Source: a virus
Taxonomy: Duplodnaviria; Caudoviricetes
Direction: 5' to 3' (one strand)
DNA: 33,764 bases
IMG/VR virus record: IMGVR_UViG_3300032226_000257
Coordinates: 1-33,764 of that record
A program made the position numbers and the translations under genes. The notes under the pieces are model-generated. The model worked only from the letters and a program-made list of their open reading frames with translations, did not search any database and was not told where the DNA came from. This document shows positions 14,808 through 22,552 of the stretch, piece by piece; within the stretch, counting starts at the first letter, position 1; every line of letters begins with the position of its first letter.

Positions 14808-14983
14808 CATACGACTACGAGTGTCCAGGGTGCGGTGATGTACGCACCATCTCACGTGGCATCAACGATCCCGAAGAGACATACATATGTACGCAGTGTG
14901 ACTGCACCTTCCAACGCAAGTGGTCGTCTCCTCTTGTAATCTTTAACTCATCAGGCTTCTACAGTGTGGACAATAAGAAGTGA
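14804..14983 (+). CDS. FmdB-family zinc-ribbon protein (59 aa)
   Basis: Read manually: MTYDYECPGCG...CTQC...FNSSGFYSVD; overlaps both neighbours by 4 nt. Confidence 0.8.
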   Translation: MTYDYECPGCGDVRTISRGINDPEETYICTQCDCTFQRKWSSPLVIFNSSGFYSVDNKK

Positions 14984-16086: not shown

Positions 16087-16365
16087 CTACTCAGTACCAC
16101 CCTCTTCTGTCGCTATGCCGGAGAGCGCGGCACGCACTCCCTGAATAGCGGTGTTCAAGGTATCGTAAGCCGTGAAGGATCTGTAGTTCAGGTCGTGAAC
16201 TACGTTCTCCAAGGAGTTGAGCAATTCCATAAGCCGAACTTCGTTTGTTGTCGGCAAGGTGGTCAAACCTGCTTTCACGGGTCCATAGGGTGATAAGGCA
16301 CGCAACTTCTCTTCTCGAATATCCGAGAGCGCGACTATATTCTCTTGCGATTCGTTTGTTCTCAC
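16087..16365 (-). CDS. Possible overprinted gene inside the transglycosylase gene (92 aa)
   Basis: Open over almost all of the SLT domain in another frame; GGAGGAG RBS and GTGA overlap with the stop of 16362..16649. Confidence 0.4.
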   Translation of the reverse strand: MRTNESQENIVALSDIREEKLRALSPYGPVKAGLTTLPTTNEVRLMELLNSLENVVHDLNYRSFTAYDTLNTAIQGVRAALSGIATEEGGTE

Positions 16366-16507
16366 GCTTCTCCTCCCCTGTCGCCTTCGTCCTCGCCGTT
16401 ATCTGCGGTTTGTGGTCCAGCTGGGGTAGCGTTGGCTCGTGTATCCAGCTGGCTAGCAGTAGTAGCACCAGTAATATCAAGCCATTTCTTACCAAGTTGT
16501 TCGTCAC
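16091..16507 (-). CDS. Membrane-anchored lytic transglycosylase (SLT-like)
   Basis: N-terminal TM segment; CL..LW.RES.F...A.N..SSAYGIAQ.L...QI..GL.Y...RY...C.A......GWY, the pattern of actinobacterial transglycosylases. Confidence 0.85.
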   Translation of the reverse strand: MTNNLVRNGLILLVLLLLASWIHEPTLPQLDHKPQITARTKATGEEKRENKRIAREYSRALGYSRREVACLITLWTRESRFDHLADNKRSSAYGIAQLLGERSSRPELQILHGLRYLEHRYSGSACRALRHSDRRGWY

Positions 16508-16649
16508 TCGCCTTCTCCTCCTCTAAGTATTCTTTATACTGATCGGGGTAGGCTTGCGCCAACCGCGTGAACGCTCTATCTCTTGCTCGTCTGTAGTTCC
16601 GGTAATAGACCGCTTGGTTAGCGGCAGCTTTAATCCTGCGCTGGGTCAC
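16362..16649 (-). CDS. Hypothetical basic helical protein
   Basis: 95 aa, GTGA-coupled to the upstream gene; YYRNYRRARDRA motif; overlaps the transglycosylase 5' end by 146 nt. Confidence 0.6.
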   Translation of the reverse strand: MTQRRIKAAANQAVYYRNYRRARDRAFTRLAQAYPDQYKEYLEEEKASDEQLGKKWLDITGATTASQLDTRANATPAGPQTADNGEDEGDRGGEA

Positions 16650-16729
16650 TCGTTCACCTTCTCTTCCAGTCTAATCAAGCCGTATGCTACCAGCAAGATA
16701 GCCCCCATTCCCAGCCAGTAGAGCATCAT
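16646..16729 (-). CDS. Small membrane peptide (27 aa)
   Basis: MMLYWLGMGAILLVAYGLIRLEEKVNE; coupled at both ends. Confidence 0.55.
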   Translation of the reverse strand: MMLYWLGMGAILLVAYGLIRLEEKVNE

Positions 16730-16983
16730 TCTCCCTTTCCTTTGGCTATTGCTTGGTTGATGATGTGCGTTATGTCTATCGGTTGCCCGATAAGCACGGC
16801 ATCTTCCTCATCTGATGACCACGCAGAGACAAGCACACGGCTACCGATAGGGGCACGTGTGTACCAGTCCACAGCTTCGTGAGGTTTCTCTCCTCCCCAT
16901 TGAGCGATACCCTCCGCGTCCGTCACCTCGTACAAGTTGATGAGGTCATACTTTGCAGGGTGGAAACTGATTACATTACTCAC
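16726..16983 (-). CDS. Hypothetical early protein
   Basis: 85 aa, AAGGAGG RBS. Confidence 0.7.
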   Translation of the reverse strand: MSNVISFHPAKYDLINLYEVTDAEGIAQWGGEKPHEAVDWYTRAPIGSRVLVSAWSSDEEDAVLIGQPIDITHIINQAIAKGKGE

Positions 16984-17266
16984 TATCGTCCTCCTTCATC
17001 TGTCCGCAATCTTCTTCATCGGCCTCGCACTCTGCAAGAGGGCGACCGCAATCTACACACTCTTCCTTTGGGAAGAGCTGATCCCAGCAAGCGGGGTGTG
17101 TGCCGGATATAAGAATCTCTCTATCTCCCGCACTCATATCAGGAAAGGTGTTTTGGATATTCTCTCCCTCTTGCCATCTAGTTACAGCATCTCGCTCTAA
17201 GCTCCACACTTCATAGTTATCGCAGACACAGCAAGGTTTGGTTTTAATTAAGATAGTGCTGCTCAT
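16976..17266 (-). CDS. Hypothetical Cys-rich early protein
   Basis: 96 aa from ATG 17266; CCVC...REILISGTHPACWD...CVDC. Confidence 0.7.
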   Translation of the reverse strand: MSSTILIKTKPCCVCDNYEVWSLERDAVTRWQEGENIQNTFPDMSAGDREILISGTHPACWDQLFPKEECVDCGRPLAECEADEEDCGQMKEDDSE

Positions 17267-17439
17267 TGAGCTGCCTCGCAATCGTTGAGGAATTGAACGC
17301 GATCAAAGGTCGCATCGCTCTCCTTGAAGGCGTCTGCCAGTTCTCTTGCGACTACTTCCATAGTGACCGGCAGTCCTTGCTCATCGTGGTTAATGCCGGA
17401 TAGAACATCGGCTACTAGTAGGTAAATATCTTTATTCAT
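17263..17439 (-). CDS. Hypothetical early protein (58 aa)
   Basis: MNKDIYLLVADVL...LADAF...FDRVQFLNDC; GGGAG RBS. Confidence 0.7.
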   Translation of the reverse strand: MNKDIYLLVADVLSGINHDEQGLPVTMEVVARELADAFKESDATFDRVQFLNDCEAAQ

Positions 17440-17545
17440 CGTCTCCCTCTCCCTCTTCCATATTGAATATGCGCGATAGCGCACTATTGGCACGCATAAG
17501 CGTAGCTAACATCTCTTCCTGCTCTCTCTTCATCGTCTCCTGCAT
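17432..17545 (-). CDS. Hypothetical early peptide (37 aa)
   Basis: MQETMKREQEEMLATLMRANSALSRIF...; AAGGAG RBS. Confidence 0.55.
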   Translation of the reverse strand: MQETMKREQEEMLATLMRANSALSRIFNMEEGEGDDE

Positions 17546-17559
17546 TGTCTCTCCTTCTC

Positions 17560-17658
17560 TCATATTAGGCACCCACAATTCTCGATGGGTGTTAAGCAGT
17601 CACCGCAGAAAATTGTGCATATGGTGCAGCCATCTCCCTCACACTCTTTACATATCAT
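17560..17658 (-). CDS. Cys-rich micro-protein (32 aa, 8 Cys)
   Basis: MICKECEGDGCTICTIFCGDCLTPIENCGCLI; ATGA coupling. Confidence 0.6.
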   Translation of the reverse strand: MICKECEGDGCTICTIFCGDCLTPIENCGCLI

Positions 17659-17792
17659 TTGCTCTCCCTCTTTTCTGTGATTGCGTTAATTTGATAGCTC
17701 TCTTCCTCATCAAGATTAAGGAAGTTATCCCAATCCCACTTGGCGGGGTTTGTGGGAGTAGTAATCTCAAAGGTAATTGTGTAGGTATTCAT
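17655..17792 (-). CDS. Hypothetical early protein (45 aa)
   Basis: MNTYTITFEITTPTNPAKWDWDNFL...; ATGA coupling at both ends. Confidence 0.65.
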   Translation of the reverse strand: MNTYTITFEITTPTNPAKWDWDNFLNLDEEESYQINAITEKRESK

Positions 17793-17911
17793 TTGCTCTC
17801 TCCTTTATAGTCCATTAGGTAGCCCTCTGCCTTACAGCTAGTGCAGGTGTCGGAGAGGTTGCCCTCTTGCCCTGCCTCGCACCAGTTACAGCGTGTCAAT
17901 AGGTCATTCAT
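17789..17911 (-). CDS. Zn-ribbon micro-protein (40 aa)
   Basis: MNDLLTRCNWC...CTSCKAEGYLMD; ATGA coupling. Confidence 0.65.
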   Translation of the reverse strand: MNDLLTRCNWCEAGQEGNLSDTCTSCKAEGYLMDYKGESK

Positions 17912-18066
17912 TCGCTCTCCTCCTTTACCTCTCCGCTCTCACACGCACTGCACGTGAAAGAGTTGTACTCGTTATGGTCGAACAGACTGCCGCACGTATC
18001 GCACTCTATGAAGTCTGAAGTGTCATTGAACGCGGGATCGAATGCGTAGTAGCTATCGGTGCCCAT
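17908..18066 (-). CDS. Zn-ribbon micro-protein (52 aa)
   Basis: MGTDSYY...ECDTCG...TCSACE; TGATG coupling. Confidence 0.65.
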   Translation of the reverse strand: MGTDSYYAFDPAFNDTSDFIECDTCGSLFDHNEYNSFTCSACESGEVKEESE

Positions 18067-18224
18067 CACTCCCCCTCCGCACAATCGTCACAGTTGACGG
18101 CGTCGTCTCTCTGTATGAGGTCGCACTGCTGGCAGTTAATTTCGTGGTCTTCCTCGCTGTGAATTGTGTGAACCGCTCCCTCTGCCCCACAGTTAGGGCA
18201 CTCTAAAGAGTTCCACTCGTTCAT
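18066..18224 (-). CDS. Zn-ribbon micro-protein (52 aa)
   Basis: MNEWNSLECPNCG...CQQC...CDDC; TAATG coupling and GGAGG RBS. Confidence 0.65.
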   Translation of the reverse strand: MNEWNSLECPNCGAEGAVHTIHSEEDHEINCQQCDLIQRDDAVNCDDCAEGE

Positions 18225-18547
18225 TATCGCCCCTCCTCTACATCTACTAGGTAGCTCGCATAGTCCCACAGGGCAGAGCCTTCCTTTACTTCTTTCGTCG
18301 CTGTATCAAACCAATCAGAGAAGCGGTAAATTATTTTCTTAATGCCGTCCTCATTATGTGTAATCTCTAGGTAATCAGACGGACCGCCATACGATAGGCA
18401 GACAGTAGTGACCTTATCGGTGTCAATGGAGAGGATAATCTCCTCCTCATTCTCACCAAGATTATCAAGCAGCTCTCTTACTTGTGCCTCACGGCTCGCC
18501 AGCTCTTCGCCTATGCGGTCCTTGCAGCTTGTCTCTTTAGTGCTCAT
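18224..18547 (-). CDS. Hypothetical acidic early protein
   Basis: 107 aa with LSYGGPSD...YRFSDWFD motif. Confidence 0.75.
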   Translation of the reverse strand: MSTKETSCKDRIGEELASREAQVRELLDNLGENEEEIILSIDTDKVTTVCLSYGGPSDYLEITHNEDGIKKIIYRFSDWFDTATKEVKEGSALWDYASYLVDVEEGR

Positions 18548-18592
18548 TCTCTTGCTCTCTCTTTCTCTTGTAGTTTGCCCTACTGCCTTAGC

Positions 18593-18639
18593 TGTAGGCT
18601 ACCACACTCTACCACATAGGCAGAGCGTGATAGTCCACA
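18593..18639 (-). other. Long intergenic RNA hairpin, candidate RNase III processing site
   Basis: Minus strand CTATCACGCTCTGCC-tatgt-GGTAGAGTGTGGTAG pairs over 15 bp including three G-U pairs, and extends by TGTGG/CTACA. Confidence 0.6.
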
Positions 18640-18640
18640 T

Positions 18641-18766
18641 CTATTCGCACTCTCTTCTAATATCTTTGCCGCAATCTTGGCAGAAGATTAGGTAGCACTT
18701 CGTGCCGTCTAGGTGTCGCAGGCAGGGCGTAAGCCCCTCCTCCTTCTGTAAGCAATCGTGACTCAC
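18641..18766 (-). CDS. Cys-rich micro-protein (41 aa)
   Basis: MSHDCLQKEEGLTPCLRHLDGTKCYLIFCQDCGKDIRRECE; GTGA coupling. Confidence 0.55.
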   Translation of the reverse strand: MSHDCLQKEEGLTPCLRHLDGTKCYLIFCQDCGKDIRRECE

Positions 18767-18981
18767 TCCTTCTCCTCCTCATCCTCGAACCCGCACAATT
18801 CATCTTCGCCGTGATACTCCTCGCAAGTGTCGCACTTATCGAACCAACCTTGCACAGTGAACTCTTCTCCGCACTTGTCGCAATCGTTGCCGTAGAGCGT
18901 GCCATCTTCTCGGTCATAGGTGCCCTCACCTTCCAGCACTTGCCCGCACTCACACTCTGATGCGTAGCTAGTCGTCTCCAT
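18763..18981 (-). CDS. Acidic Cys-rich early protein
   Basis: 72 aa; CEC, CDKC, CDTC; TAATG coupling. Confidence 0.7.
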   Translation of the reverse strand: METTSYASECECGQVLEGEGTYDREDGTLYGNDCDKCGEEFTVQGWFDKCDTCEEYHGEDELCGFEDEEEKE

Positions 18982-19124
18982 TACTTGCCCTCCCTTTCTC
19001 TTATCTTAAAGAATATGCGGCAGCCTAGCTCTAGCAAGCCCCACAAGATAACACCCTGCACGGCCAGCGATAGCAAGCCTCCGGCCAGCTCTACGAATTG
19101 AGCGCCGATCGATTCCCTCTTCAT
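18981..19124 (-). CDS. Small membrane protein (47 aa)
   Basis: MKRESIGAQFVELAGGLLSLAVQGVILWGLLELGCRIFFKIREREGK; TAATG at both ends. Confidence 0.65.
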   Translation of the reverse strand: MKRESIGAQFVELAGGLLSLAVQGVILWGLLELGCRIFFKIREREGK

Positions 19125-19228
19125 TACTTGCCCTCCTTGTGGTTATCGTTACAGCATTCGCAATAGCGATTGAGATTAGCGTGACCGCAAGAGTCACACC
19201 TATCCGGTGACATAGCTCCCCCTGCCAT
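19124..19228 (-). CDS. Cys-rich micro-protein (34 aa)
   Basis: MAGGAMSPDRCDSCGHANLNRYCECCNDNHKEGK; TAATG at both ends. Confidence 0.6.
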   Translation of the reverse strand: MAGGAMSPDRCDSCGHANLNRYCECCNDNHKEGK

Positions 19229-19431
19229 TACTTGCCCTCCCTTTCCAATGTATCGCAGGCATCTAGCCACGCCTGCGGATTCTGCCGTACTAGCGTCATC
19301 TCTGATACGCCGTAGCTCTTGTATAGCTCTGCGTCCGCGCACCCTTGCGCGTCCGAGGTAGTAAGCCCCTCGCCCTCAAGCTCTGCAACGAGGGCGCGGT
19401 ATTCGCGGATATATTCGATAGCCGTAATCAT
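19228..19431 (-). CDS. Hypothetical early protein
   Basis: 67 aa with V.ELE.EGLTTSDAQG..DAE motif. Confidence 0.7.
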   Translation of the reverse strand: MITAIEYIREYRALVAELEGEGLTTSDAQGCADAELYKSYGVSEMTLVRQNPQAWLDACDTLEREGK

Positions 19432-19584
19432 TTACTTATACTCCGCCCAGATGTCGGTCTCTTCGATGCCTTCGCCGTAGACTTCACGGAGATAGTCGAG
19501 GGCGTAGCGAACGCCTTCGGCGTATGCCATTGTAGATTGCTTACGCATCTCTGCGGCGTTAGCTTGTATCTCTTTCATATCCAT
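19432..19584 (-). CDS. Hypothetical early protein (50 aa), directly downstream of the ribozyme
   Basis: MDMKEIQANAAEMRKQSTMAYAEGVRYALDYLREVYGEGIEETDIWAEYK; AAGGAGG RBS. Confidence 0.7.
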   Translation of the reverse strand: MDMKEIQANAAEMRKQSTMAYAEGVRYALDYLREVYGEGIEETDIWAEYK

Positions 19585-19609
19585 TTACTTGCCTCCTTCT
19601 GTAGCTGAT

Positions 19610-19659
19610 GACCTCATCAGTAGCCGAGTAACGGCTAGACGCCTCACGGCGTTTCGGTC
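19610..19659 (-). ncRNA. Type II hammerhead ribozyme
   Basis: Minus strand: GACC GAA ACGCC gtga GGCGT C TAGCCG ttact CGGCTA CTGATGA GGTC. All core nucleotides (GAAA, GUC triplet, CUGAUGA) and three Watson-Crick stems are present; predicted cut between 19638 and 19637. Confidence 0.93.
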
Positions 19660-19763
19660 TATAGCTCTACGAGCCTATCGTCCGTGAATTGCTCGCAGTA
19701 CTTGCAGACTTGCATACCACGGACTACGGAAGCTACCTTCCGAGCTGAGCATATCTCGCACAT
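19659..19763 (-). CDS. First early gene, Zn-finger micro-protein (34 aa)
   Basis: MCEICSARKVASVVRGMQVCKYCEQFTDDRLVEL; AAAGGGG RBS just downstream of the promoter. Confidence 0.65.
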   Translation of the reverse strand: MCEICSARKVASVVRGMQVCKYCEQFTDDRLVEL

Positions 19764-19793
19764 ATTTACCCCTTTCCCTCGCGGTGTGCGCCC

Positions 19794-19822
19794 ATTATTG
19801 CCTATGGGGTATAGCGTGTCAA
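19794..19822 (-). promoter_or_regulatory. Housekeeping-sigma promoter for the early operon
   Basis: TTGACA (19822-19817), 17 nt spacer, AATAAT (19799-19794). Confidence 0.75.
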
Positions 19823-19838
19823 GCCCATTTAGCTATTT

Positions 19839-19864
19839 ATTTGATAACGATTTGATAACGATTT
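19839..19864. repeat. 11-bp tandem direct repeat
   Basis: ATTTGATAACG twice, plus ATTT. Confidence 0.85.
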
Positions 19865-19958
19865 CCGGTGAGCTTGTGTCGATATGTCGACAATTAGAAG
19901 TGGTTGAAGATTCAACTATCTCTGCAAGTTACCGGCGAGTAACGTTACTAGCGGGTAA

Positions 19959-19974
19959 TCGAACAGTTGTTCGG
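19959..19974. promoter_or_regulatory. LexA (SOS) box, Gram-positive/actinobacterial type
   Basis: TCGAAC-AGTT-GTTCGG against the consensus TCGAAC-N4-GTTCGA. Confidence 0.75.
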
Positions 19975-20073
19975 ATCTTTACATAATGGGGCAGATTGTC
20001 AACCATTTACAGTTACAGCTTAAATGTCTAGGGTGCCGGAGCTGGAGTCAGCCCTCCATTTTTTTACAGAAAC

Positions 20074-20118
20074 TTATCCACAACCCTTATCCACAGCTGG
20101 GGACAAACCTGTGGACAG
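20074..20118. promoter_or_regulatory. Cluster of four DnaA boxes
   Basis: TTATCCACA at 20074-20082 and 20087-20095; inverted TTGTCCCCA (20098-20106) and CTGTCCACA (20110-20118). Confidence 0.8.
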
Positions 20119-20236
20119 CCCACAACGCGCTCGGGCGCGTCCCCCCGTGTTAAAATCTGGCGCGGGTGGTCCCTATACTCCCCAGAAAAATATATTTCCT
20201 AAAGTGAAAGTGGCTCTGACCTGCGGTTATACTGTA

Positions 20237-20252
20237 TGTGTTACAACTCACA
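20237..20252. promoter_or_regulatory. CRP/GlxR-like site
   Basis: TGTGT-N6-TCACA, one mismatch from TGTGA-N6-TCACA. Confidence 0.45.
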
Positions 20253-20550
20253 GTAGTAAATGTGAGAAATCGAGTCCAATACTCGCCTTATATATAGTAG
20301 GGGAGAAAAGTACGGGGAAGTAGTTTTCGAGCAGTGCGCTACGGGGTGAAACCCCTTCGCGTAGCCCCCTAGGGCGAAGCGAGCTGTACCACTAAATGCG
20401 GGATAGGTCTATCTAAATCTAGATCACTGATATCCCAGTATGTGAGACAATCTGCCCAGTAGTGAAATCGAAGATTTCTATTAAAAGTTGCAACTTCCCT
20501 AGTATAAAAGAAGAGCCATCACGGCCGATTTTTAGAAAAGGAATACCAGT

Positions 20551-20700
20551 ATGATTATCTACGAGTCAGACCGTAAGAACAAGAAGCACTACACGGCGTC
20601 CCGCCGTAAGGCTGACCAAGAATTTTTGAAGCAAGCACGCCGCCGAATCGCGGCAGCTATTCTGGTAGAAGAGGCCCGACGCAAGGAAGCCAATGCCTGA
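20551..20700 (+). CDS. Small basic protein (49 aa) upstream of terminase
   Basis: MIIYESDRKNKKHYTASRRKADQEFLKQARRRIAAAILVEEARRKEANA; AAAGGA RBS. Confidence 0.55.
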   Translation: MIIYESDRKNKKHYTASRRKADQEFLKQARRRIAAAILVEEARRKEANA

Positions 20701-22552
20701 AAATAGCGCCGACATAGCCAAGAGGATTATCCTCGGCTGCGTCGCAGAAGGTATGACCATCGACGCCGCTTGCGGCTCAGCTGGCAAGTCGATAAAGACG
20801 TATGAGTACTACCGTCGCACAGATAAGATTTTTGCAGACAAGGTAGATCGTACTAGGCTAGGGCTTAAGGACAAGCAGTTCCAAGGTGGAGACGTTCACG
20901 ATATTGACTTCGTGACCTTTCGCCAGAAATTCTTGCACTCCAAGACTTTTCCACATCAGGTAAACCTGATAGATGTGATTGAAGGACGTGAGCCTAGTTG
21001 GCTCCATCCCAGTATGAAGTTTGAACCAGGCCTGGCTAGCAACCGCGTTCTGATTAACATACCGCCAAACCACGCCAAGTCGATTACGGTCACCGTCGAC
21101 TACGTGACGTGGAAGGTAGCCCAGAACCCGAACTTCCGAGTTTTGATTGTATCCCAGACCCAGCAGTTAGCTGCCGACTTTCTCTACGCCATCAAGCAAA
21201 GACTGACGCATCCTATGTATGCAGACTTGCAGAGCGCTTATGCTGCTGGCGTAGGGTTTAATTCTAAGTCAGCTTCTTGGCAGGCAACGCGAGTCACCTT
21301 CGGTGATGAACTCCGTGAGTCTAGTGAGAAGGACCCGAACATTGAGGCCGTCGGTATCGGCGGTCAGATTTACGGCAAGCGTGCCGATATGATTATTGTA
21401 GATGACGCGGTCACCTTAAAGAACGCTAATGAGTTTGAAAAGCAGATACGTTGGTTGACCCAGGACGTGCGATCTCGTCTTAACCCTACCGGTAAGTTAA
21501 TTGTTATTGGAACCCGTGTAGCCTCGGTGGACCTATATCGAGAACTTCGTAATGAGGACCGCTACCCAGGCGGTCAGGTCCCTTGGAAGTATCTGGCGAT
21601 GCCAGCACTGCTGGAGATAGATGAGGACCCCGACAAGTGGGTTACCTTATGGCCTGCCTCAGATGCTCCATTCGATGGACAAGAAGAATCTGATAAGAAC
21701 GAAGACGGTCTATATCCTAGATGGTCTGGTCGTAACTTATATAACGAACGCCAAGCTATGGATGCAGGAACCTGGGCGCTGGTCTACCAGCAACAGGACG
21801 TATCCGAGAACGCTGCCTTTGACCCAGTATGTGTACGTGGCTCTATGGACGGAATGCGTAAAGCAGGACGTTTGGAGATGGGACACCCAGGGCACCCGAA
21901 AGACTTAACAGGCTTCAGTTTTATCTGTGGTATGGATCCGGCCATTGTCGGAGATACCGCCGCTGTCTGTTACGCCATTGACCGTACTACCTCTAAACGC
22001 TACATCGTAGACGTTATTAAGATTACTAAGCCTAGCCCGCAGCAGATTCGTGACATCATCATTAACTGGACGCAGCTCTACAGCCCGTCCGAGTGGATTA
22101 TTGAGAAGAACGCCTTTCAGGCTTTCCTTACTCAAGATGAAGGTATCCGTATGTTCCTTGCAGGACGCGGTGTAGTTCTTAAAGAACACCATACCGGTTC
22201 TAATAAGTGGGATTCAGGCTTCGGTGTGGCATCTATGGCCACCCTCTTTGGTACTAAGCAAGCAGATGGTAAGCACCATCGAGATAACTTGATACACCTA
22301 CCTAGTGATCAGACAGAGAACATCAAGGCTCTAGTAGAGCAGTTGATTACGTGGACGCCAACAACTAAGGGTAAGACCGATATTGTGATGGCGCTCTGGT
22401 TCTGTGAGATTCGAGCACGTGAGATGCTCAACTACGGCCAGTACGCAACGCACCACCTTAAGAATCCTTTCCTCTCCAGGGCGGAGTTGGGAAAGCGAGT
22501 AGTTGTCAACATAGATGAACTACTAGCACAACAGAATCAAACATTCGTCTAG
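20693..22552 (+). CDS. terL: Terminase large subunit with N-terminal HTH extension
   Basis: Walker A variant PPNHAKS, Walker B IIVDD, coupling motif IGTR, nuclease GMDPA, IEKN and DIVMALW. Confidence 0.93.
   Translation: MPENSADIAKRIILGCVAEGMTIDAACGSAGKSIKTYEYYRRTDKIFADKVDRTRLGLKDKQFQGGDVHDIDFVTFRQKFLHSKTFPHQVNLIDVIEGREPSWLHPSMKFEPGLASNRVLINIPPNHAKSITVTVDYVTWKVAQNPNFRVLIVSQTQQLAADFLYAIKQRLTHPMYADLQSAYAAGVGFNSKSASWQATRVTFGDELRESSEKDPNIEAVGIGGQIYGKRADMIIVDDAVTLKNANEFEKQIRWLTQDVRSRLNPTGKLIVIGTRVASVDLYRELRNEDRYPGGQVPWKYLAMPALLEIDEDPDKWVTLWPASDAPFDGQEESDKNEDGLYPRWSGRNLYNERQAMDAGTWALVYQQQDVSENAAFDPVCVRGSMDGMRKAGRLEMGHPGHPKDLTGFSFICGMDPAIVGDTAAVCYAIDRTTSKRYIVDVIKITKPSPQQIRDIIINWTQLYSPSEWIIEKNAFQAFLTQDEGIRMFLAGRGVVLKEHHTGSNKWDSGFGVASMATLFGTKQADGKHHRDNLIHLPSDQTENIKALVEQLITWTPTTKGKTDIVMALWFCEIRAREMLNYGQYATHHLKNPFLSRAELGKRVVVNIDELLAQQNQTFV

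Follow-up and report, generated by a model that had tools for sequence, protein, structure and literature searches.

Judging from comparative sequence analysis, the group of host-type binding sites that lies upstream of the terminase gene in a 33,764-nt viral DNA (the window, meaning the whole stretch analyzed) is a genuine and conserved element, matched to host sites and ordered in its structure, and we did not find its kind described. Its best reading, to which we give a probability of about 40%, would be that host proteins cover the end of the phage DNA as a helically phased cap. We prefer this reading because the binders are interchangeable, a protein that is not a regulator (XerD) is among them, the array appears to lie at the DNA end, and the sites are phased. 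It is a still more tentative idea that these phages copy the strongest sites of many unrelated host proteins into a phased, swappable cap cassette and that several unrelated lineages do likewise.

Setting and composition of the array

The window is a virus record that is 84% complete. A scan of 50 ORFs found genes for WhiB, a DnaB-like helicase, a primase, a sigma factor, a portal, and the terminase large subunit (20693–22552, plus strand; phrog_38, E = 4e-63), and no repressor or integrase was found among the scanned proteins. By terminase, the nearest named relatives are E7 and F5, two phages cultured on Ca. Planktophila (PMC10202952), at 47% identity, and the terminases of Streptomyces cluster BF phages share 42–43% identity with that of the window. 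By these comparisons, the window is a freshwater actinophage with kinship to both groups.

The array lies between a leftward sigma-70-type promoter-like site (19794–19822, minus strand, 11/12 matches) and the terminase leader. The promoter-like site faces the small early-type genes on the minus strand (16087–19584), inward from the inferred right end, and a second promoter-like site lies near the array at 20150–20179. We rejected the array as coding or structured RNA, as three ORFs across it had no PHROG match and no Rfam match fell inside it. Outside the array, in the early leader, 19599–19659 (minus strand) gave a sub-threshold Rfam match (22.9 bits, E = 0.066) to a hammerhead of type II, and this stretch is common to relatives in read data. 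An identical 21-bp repeat occurs at the early-gene junctions 18978–18998 and 19225–19245, and contigs of relatives skip 18765–18990, suggesting gene cassette exchange. An assembly artefact was also rejected, as a single Logan contig, possibly from the source sample, crosses the array and equals 19323–20382 with zero differences.

The motif positions given in a preliminary description of this DNA, which had proposed a decoy for transcription factors, were all recovered from the sequence. From left to right, they comprise an 11-bp tandem direct repeat of the GlnR/MtrA type (19839–19864, with the RTAAC-n6-RTAAC core at 19844–19859), a TGTCGA-N4-TCGACA(ATT) palindrome (19877–19895, the palindrome itself at 19877–19892), a putative MarR-family operator of the inferred host (19901–19918, with the GTTGAA palindrome at 19903–19916), two abutting TTAC-N6-GTAA palindromes that are probably operators of an acyl-CoA/fatty-acid regulon (19928–19959), and a LexA (SOS) box (19960–19973). 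What had been taken for one XerD arm at about 19978–19986 is indeed present, but it makes up only the left side of a 25-bp site with two arms (19977–20003, GACA-N13-TGTC, 7-bp spacer), and a second XerD-arm pair follows at 20005–20031. Four DnaA boxes come next (20074–20118), those at 20074 and 20087 being perfect and those at 20098 and 20110 having one mismatch each. The array had been thought to end at about 20120; in fact, host-type sites continue rightward through 20214–20448.

The first feature beyond the DnaA boxes is a family-wide landmark on the plus strand (20141–20205) consisting of a C-run/GTGTTAAA, ACTCCCC, an AT-rich run, and TAAAGT, which is likely a packaging signal. It is followed by a CTCTGACCTGCGG element (20214–20226, plus strand; 40/70 arrays), which recurs in degenerate form between the DnaA boxes of the host dnaA-dnaN origin region (11 origins aligned), and by a CRP-like box (20237–20252; 60/70 arrays) with a conserved TATAGT (20237–20300 in all, plus strand). 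The distance from the CRP-like box to TATAGT is 55–56 nt in 49/59 arrays, and the box is also present in BF phages; together they may form a rightward promoter, or an element for unwinding, that serves the terL end. A putative operator of the IclR type (leucine/branched-chain regulon) lies in the terL leader (20432–20448) and in 8/70 arrays. A perfect 12-bp inverted repeat (19989–20000 and 20446–20457, 445 nt apart) links the first XerD pair with the IclR box.

Palindromes had been expected to be denser here than in shuffled sequence, which held for arms of at least 6 (4 observed vs 0.61 in 1,000 dinucleotide shuffles, p = 0.003) but not for arms of at least 4 (13 vs 9.6, p = 0.16). The count of 4 long-arm palindromes was reached by 1.4% of 286-bp genome windows. 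Chance was ruled out for the long arms by the enrichment and by conservation. In the rest of the 33.8 kb, the only further occurrences of any array motif are two DnaA-type boxes, both weaker, at 14965 and 28583.

Conservation, exchange, and spacing of the sites

Relatives were collected from 80 terminase loci, 43 of 80 WhiB loci (L085–L127), and 120 landmark loci, the WhiB-based search adding little. Enough flank was present in 95 loci, which dereplication reduced to 70, or 69 without a false landmark (L091), the window included. Among these 69 arrays, the GlnR-type repeat was present in 30, TGTCGA in 11, MarR in 16, the acyl-CoA sites in 18, LexA in 5, the XerD pair in 41, and DnaA boxes in 37, with shuffled means of at most 0.6 per motif; the relatives have common ancestry and recombine, so these counts are not independent. 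None of the eight motifs tested was found in 10/69 arrays. In gapped alignments, motif identity was modestly higher than spacer identity in 12/13 relatives.

A second set, gathered by the TGTCGA pattern, comprised 81 viral stretches, of which 80 were read and 60 remained after dereplication, 51 having a terminase match in the locus. The prediction that relatives keep the motifs while shuffling order and spacers was borne out in that motifs are kept, spacers vary, and order and copy number are reshuffled in the distant relatives of this set (terminase 41–48% identity), but close relatives keep the site order of the window and differ in their spacers. Copy number expands to six acyl-CoA sites in L048, five DnaA boxes in L484, and up to six MprA-like boxes in L479. 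Of the cultured phages, E7 and F5 each carry sites of the CRP-like, TGTCGA, and MarR-like kinds, with a XerD pair in addition in E7.

Comparable mosaics occur next to other gene content. A 4.5-kb fragment (L626, positions 1–230) has a XerD pair, many DnaA-type boxes, and a MarR site, and a complete 76-kb genome (L429, 700–1700), in which a search run without a positive control gave no match to the terminase of the window, has DnaA boxes, two TGTCGA sites, CRP-like boxes, and LexA, suggesting that other phage families use such sites. Streptomyces BF phages have different repeats at this end and almost none of the sites of the array (6/6 inspected). Their non-coding right ends (L084, L535–L539) contain TGTCCG 7–11 times, GCAGGTCA 1–3 times, and 12-bp direct repeats, and these motifs are possibly an analogous pad for other host proteins.

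Several further repeats were seen in these loci. Distant relatives (L453, L466, L479, L428) have runs of CTGAGA-n5 repeats, MprA-like, of up to six pairs; the MprA-like repeats have only weak host matches (upstream of an OmpR-family regulator gene in the host genome G217) and are degenerate in the window. Tandem CTAGACC repeats occupy the repeat slot in L024, L286, L301, L318, L339, and L349, where DnaA and XerD sites are absent. One contig (L029:1–376) starts with an inverted copy of the terL leader, which is probably an assembly fold-back. The names MprA, BldC, AdnAB, NdgR/LtbR, Zur, and XDS are used throughout as what we take to be family labels.

The repeat slot is where the exchange of sites is clearest. 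Among the 69 arrays, it holds DnaA boxes only in 36, a XerD pair only in 14, both in 0, and neither in 19, and a tree built from 66 downstream regions implies 11 changes of the XerD state, of which well-supported branches force at least 10. Other occupants are a LexA box (L058, L062), an IclR box (L008), and a Zur/Fur-like box (L127). The identity of the binder in this slot seems not to matter.

Spacings change mostly in whole helical turns, that is, in steps of about 10 bp: the GlnR-TGTCGA distances are 34/44/55, the TGTCGA-Xer distances 70/81/91/103/112, and the MarR-Xer distances 26/38/45/56/67/76. Helical phasing was supported for 11/15 pairs at p < 0.05 on distinct distances and for 9/15 after stricter dereplication, falling to 3/17 pairs (p < 0.05) once distances that differed by no more than 2 bp were merged. 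Phasing to the GlnR-type repeat was seen for GlnR-TGTCGA, GlnR-MarR, and GlnR-DnaA (p ≤ 0.005), and the acyl-CoA sites had no phasing to GlnR, TGTCGA, or MarR (p 0.14–0.97).

Most motifs had been judged too far upstream to repress the single promoter. This stands for the repressor sites, which lie 80–300 bp upstream and overlap no promoter found (the LexA box is about 140 bp upstream of the -35, and its nearest promoter-like sites are 19794–19822 and 20150–20179), but not for the 11-bp repeat, which lies 19 nt from the -35. In 15/26 arrays, the direct repeat is 19–22 nt from the -35-like hexamer, and the 19-nt gap of the window equals the gap at a host sugar-uptake promoter (L414). The GlnR/MtrA-type repeat is likely a true promoter input and probably an activator site.

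Counterparts of the sites in host genomes

As host proxies, we used 22 genomes of 1.3–1.5 Mb from one family, whose likeness to Planktophila rests on size, 48% GC, and class; one of them (G217, 1,347,384 bp) was read whole. Six of the seven motif kinds appear to have host counterparts, namely, MarR, LexA, DnaA, acyl-CoA, GlnR/MtrA-type, and paired XerD arms. The view that these are host-regulator sites thus holds for six kinds, with matching sites beside the expected host genes, but not for the TGTCGA palindrome. That pattern occurs in 81 viral stretches against 12 scattered GTDB matches, and it was found in 1/251 host-family genomes; with one mismatch allowed, it occurs in 5/22 hosts, which is not above control.

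The MarR pattern was found in 27/401 Actinomycetes-class genomes, of which 22 have 2–5 sites each (control, 1 site) and are the proxies, picked by this very motif. Directly after these sites come pirin, doxX, yceI, and also marR, and multiple copies were found in only one family among the 401 genomes sampled. LexA boxes number 2–4 per genome in 22/22 hosts (control, 2 in all) and lie at lexA and recA, and the exact box of the window occurs in 5/22 hosts. DnaA boxes mark the host origin region. Host sites of the IclR type were found at ilvB, at the aspartokinase gene (ask), and between leuC and the iclR gene.

For two motifs, support comes from gene context only. The acyl-CoA motif has a raw host count below control (28 vs 71), and its top profile matches in G217 precede genes for acyl-CoA dehydrogenase, etfB, thiolase, acyltransferase, and carboxyltransferase; in 12 hosts, 10/19 distinct sites inspected precede genes of the acyl-CoA type, the names being assigned partly by eye. 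The 11-bp repeat fits the GlnR box, GTnAC-n6-GTnAC (PMC10704036), and MtrA binds repeats similar to that box (PMC5650626). Raw counts of the direct repeat in the 22 hosts are not above control; GTAAC-n6-GTAAC is found upstream of glnA and amtB in G217, and the three best host profile matches precede sugar-binding proteins.

Several other candidates gave little. The hosts encode Crp, but a CRP regulon was rejected, as the CRP-like box was found in 1/22 hosts and the best profile score was below that of shuffled controls. The GGTCWGACC and CTGACC profiles pointed to no clear host regulon, and patterns for parS, CIRCE, HAIR, NrdR, IdeR, Rex, and ArgR were absent from 69 + 80 arrays, a weak test, as most were absent from the host as well. 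Lsr2 was found in none of 4/4 hosts.

The XerD-type sites are members of the array that are not transcription-factor sites. All 22 hosts have a dif, with the arm TTATGTAAAG in 15 of the 21 printed, and the arm at 19977–19986 in the window is identical to the host dif XerD arm. The phage site has two XerD-arm-like halves in 25 bp, with a 7-bp spacer in 33 arrays and 14-nt variants in 3; the 6-bp spacer of host dif was found in none of 70 arrays. A strict form of this pattern occurred in 0/22 hosts against 24 in control, and a relaxed form, itself depleted in hosts (25 strand matches vs 209 in control), then revealed a single site 3.8–4.0 kb from dif that 10/22 hosts keep (e.g., G217:C1:610241–610265, which is L510, and L505, L506, L508, and L509). 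In the five translated, the site lies inside the same gene, and its codons are rare (GTA 16%, GAC 19%, ATA 8% in G217), which suggests selection on the DNA. This host site near dif is a candidate XDS-like terminus site in these actinobacteria and is apparently undescribed. XerD bound at XDS sites unloads SMC at the Bacillus subtilis terminus (PMC11894783), and the likeness lies in a XerD-arm-type host site that is near the terminus and depleted elsewhere, in hosts that carry XerC/D-like genes and SMC. A phage with copies of such a site was not found described.

Location at the DNA end

Two observations bear on where the phage DNA ends. In Streptomyces phage Immanuel3, the direct terminal repeat measures 275 bp and stops directly ahead of a landmark that the window shares at 20141–20183, and BF phages are podoviruses with 253-bp repeats (PMC9753666). 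In relatives of the window, 10/21 left contig ends lie between -173 and -145 relative to 20200 (p = 3e-9 against a uniform spread), a result from contigs only, to which assembly breaks could contribute; no start or stop peaks at ends were seen in contigs. The clustering and the shared landmark would place a direct terminal repeat of about 150 bp, carried on each end of the virion DNA, at about 20027–20176, with the landmark at its right edge and the second XerD pair adjoining its left edge. Each end would then have the DnaA boxes, and the remainder of the array would occupy about 200 unique bases from the right repeat to the early promoter, so that the array would take up everything from the DNA end to the first promoter. 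There is no gene between this end and the array. In T7, the analogous end enters first, and by analogy we infer that the array end enters first here.

Discussion

The preliminary description had offered three functions for the array, namely, titrating host regulators as phage DNA amplifies, coating the incoming DNA end with host proteins, and integrating host state. Coating fits best, given the end location, the DnaA/XerD interchange, and the phasing, whereas a report on host state fits the promoter-proximal repeat only. We propose that the array would bring host proteins onto the DNA end in register with the helix and that this cap would shield or organize the entering DNA until early transcription starts. 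It might hinder end-loading nucleases, such as a host AdnAB-like pair, which we infer from two adjacent PD-(D/E)XK genes of about 1,030–1,090 aa in 4/4 hosts. Many different binders would be sensible in a streamlined cell in which each regulator is scarce and some are always non-binding, and titration of regulators after replication would be a side effect. Several points count against a cap: RecBCD-type enzymes can evict single bound proteins, no other non-coding stretch is as long as the array, so that decoy sites would gather there in any case, and the BF phages carry other repeats at this end. With 19/69 arrays lacking DnaA and XerD in the slot and 10/69 lacking any motif, the cap is either dispensable or made of sites that we did not recognize. 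Brownian-ratchet entry was also considered and set aside, as the pressure in the capsid should be enough to drive in the first few hundred bases and the literature search for it was empty.

Among the alternatives, the leading one, though doubtful, is a decoy for many targets. Tens of replicated phage copies would titrate LexA, the MarR-family and acyl-CoA repressors, DnaA, and XerD, leaving repair, redox, and fatty-acid genes derepressed and host replication and segregation stalled. Titration is plausible by the numbers, as hosts have few sites to compete (2–5 strong MarR, 2–4 LexA, one dif, and at most one nearby XerD pair), and the phage sites are near-perfect, expand in copy number, appear to match genuine host operators except for TGTCGA, and are reshuffled among the distant relatives; no family-A polymerase was found in 5/5 relatives, so host repair and replication proteins matter, and decoy sites do work in engineered E. 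coli (PMC7826281). However, independent sites need neither helical phasing nor a fixed order, and close relatives keep the order. Titration also leaves the mutual exclusion of DnaA and XerD unexplained, should harm the phage in the case of GlnR, an activator, and would have only one of each site to work with at entry. An extended control region for the early promoter, in which phased host proteins bend DNA around RNA polymerase or report host state, and so set the strength or timing of early transcription, is rather unlikely, even if such a module may extend past the GlnR-type repeat. The distance of that repeat from the -35 speaks for it, phasing to the repeat equals phasing to the promoter, and phage promoters under host LexA exist in GIL01 (PMC4551915). 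It is at odds with repressor sites that lie so far upstream, with a set of signals that lacks a coherent logic and varies between close relatives, with XerD pairs, which are not regulators, and with the lack of Lsr2 in 4/4 hosts, which leaves counter-silencing unsupported.

The two remaining explanations fail in their defining features. It is improbable that the array is a replication origin or packaging scaffold at the concatemer junction, where DnaA and phased proteins would wrap the DNA, opening AT-rich 20185–20205 or positioning terminase cuts. A CTCTGACC element and a TATATATA run are common to the terL leader (20214–20300) and to host dnaA-dnaN origins (L189, L262–L273), and the second XerD pair adjoins the inferred repeat edge; the phage has its own DnaB-like helicase and primase, and the lack of a family-A polymerase in the 5 relatives belongs here as well. 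Yet the slot is free of DnaA boxes in 33/69 relatives, the AT run and CTCTGACC are oriented to each other in the opposite way to the host origin, no GC-skew switch occurs at the array, and a similar mosaic is found in the 76-kb genome in which that search (no positive control) detected no such terminase. Least probable is a mimic of dif for Xer-mediated integration or dimer resolution. The left arm of the first pair is the host XerD arm and the window has no integrase, but in place of a XerC arm, a 6-bp center, and a XerD arm, there are two arms of XerD type with spacers that are never 6 bp, in one or two copies at varying places, and 28/69 arrays have no site at all.

A search of the literature, which covered few subscription papers, found no natural multi-operator array in a phage, in agreement with the earlier statement that its author knew of no described system of this form; the closest described cases involve one host factor each. 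The injection-stop region (iss) of T5, with a proposed role in DNA entry, belongs to a terminal repeat, is non-coding and rich in palindromes, and holds several DnaA boxes of the host (bioRxiv 10.1101/866236), and here, too, four DnaA boxes lie in the inferred repeat. T5 involves one host factor in a fixed layout of 8 boxes about 8% into the genome, whereas here at least six host factors lie within about 350 bp of the end with interchangeable content; neither a conserved layout nor pre-early genes were found, as 33/69 arrays lack the boxes and no gene precedes the array. Synthetic transcription-factor decoys or DNA sponges (PMC7826281, PMC8599769) likewise supply extra operator copies able to titrate regulators, but those are engineered or act on a single factor, and the array is natural, multi-factor, ordered, and helically phased. 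The LexA-controlled promoters of GIL01 (PMC4551915) share with the array a perfect host SOS box in phage DNA; the LexA box of the array overlaps no promoter found, as a LexA-repressed temperate switch would require, and occurs in 5/69 arrays. BF phages (Beephvirinae; PMC9753666) have a related terminase, the same repeat-edge landmark, and a long, motif-rich non-coding right end, but their motifs are not the sites of the array.

Lambda Gam and T7 gp5.9 are phage end-protection proteins with the purpose that the cap would have, namely, to keep the helicase-nucleases of the host away from the ends of linear phage DNA. They are encoded by the phage, whereas the predicted cap would consist of host proteins recruited by DNA sequence alone. 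Mu Gam is a further end-protection protein (bioRxiv 10.1101/2025.08.30.673261).

The motifs are useful in their own right, and they pointed to the apparently undescribed XerD-type site beside dif in these bacteria. Since multiple MarR sites occur in only one family among the 401 genomes sampled, such arrays can link phages to hosts without CRISPR. Whether the array acts as a cap, a decoy, or a promoter module is testable now, as versions of it are present in E7 and F5, which are in culture on Planktophila. Phages disarm their hosts with proteins and RNAs; if our reading is true, these phages would follow a different strategy, in which a stretch of non-coding DNA at the genome end gathers some six unrelated proteins of the host. 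The viruses that use it would be abundant ones, infecting a bacterial group that is among the most abundant in freshwater, and their cassettes would list which DNA sequences the proteins of a barely cultured host recognize.
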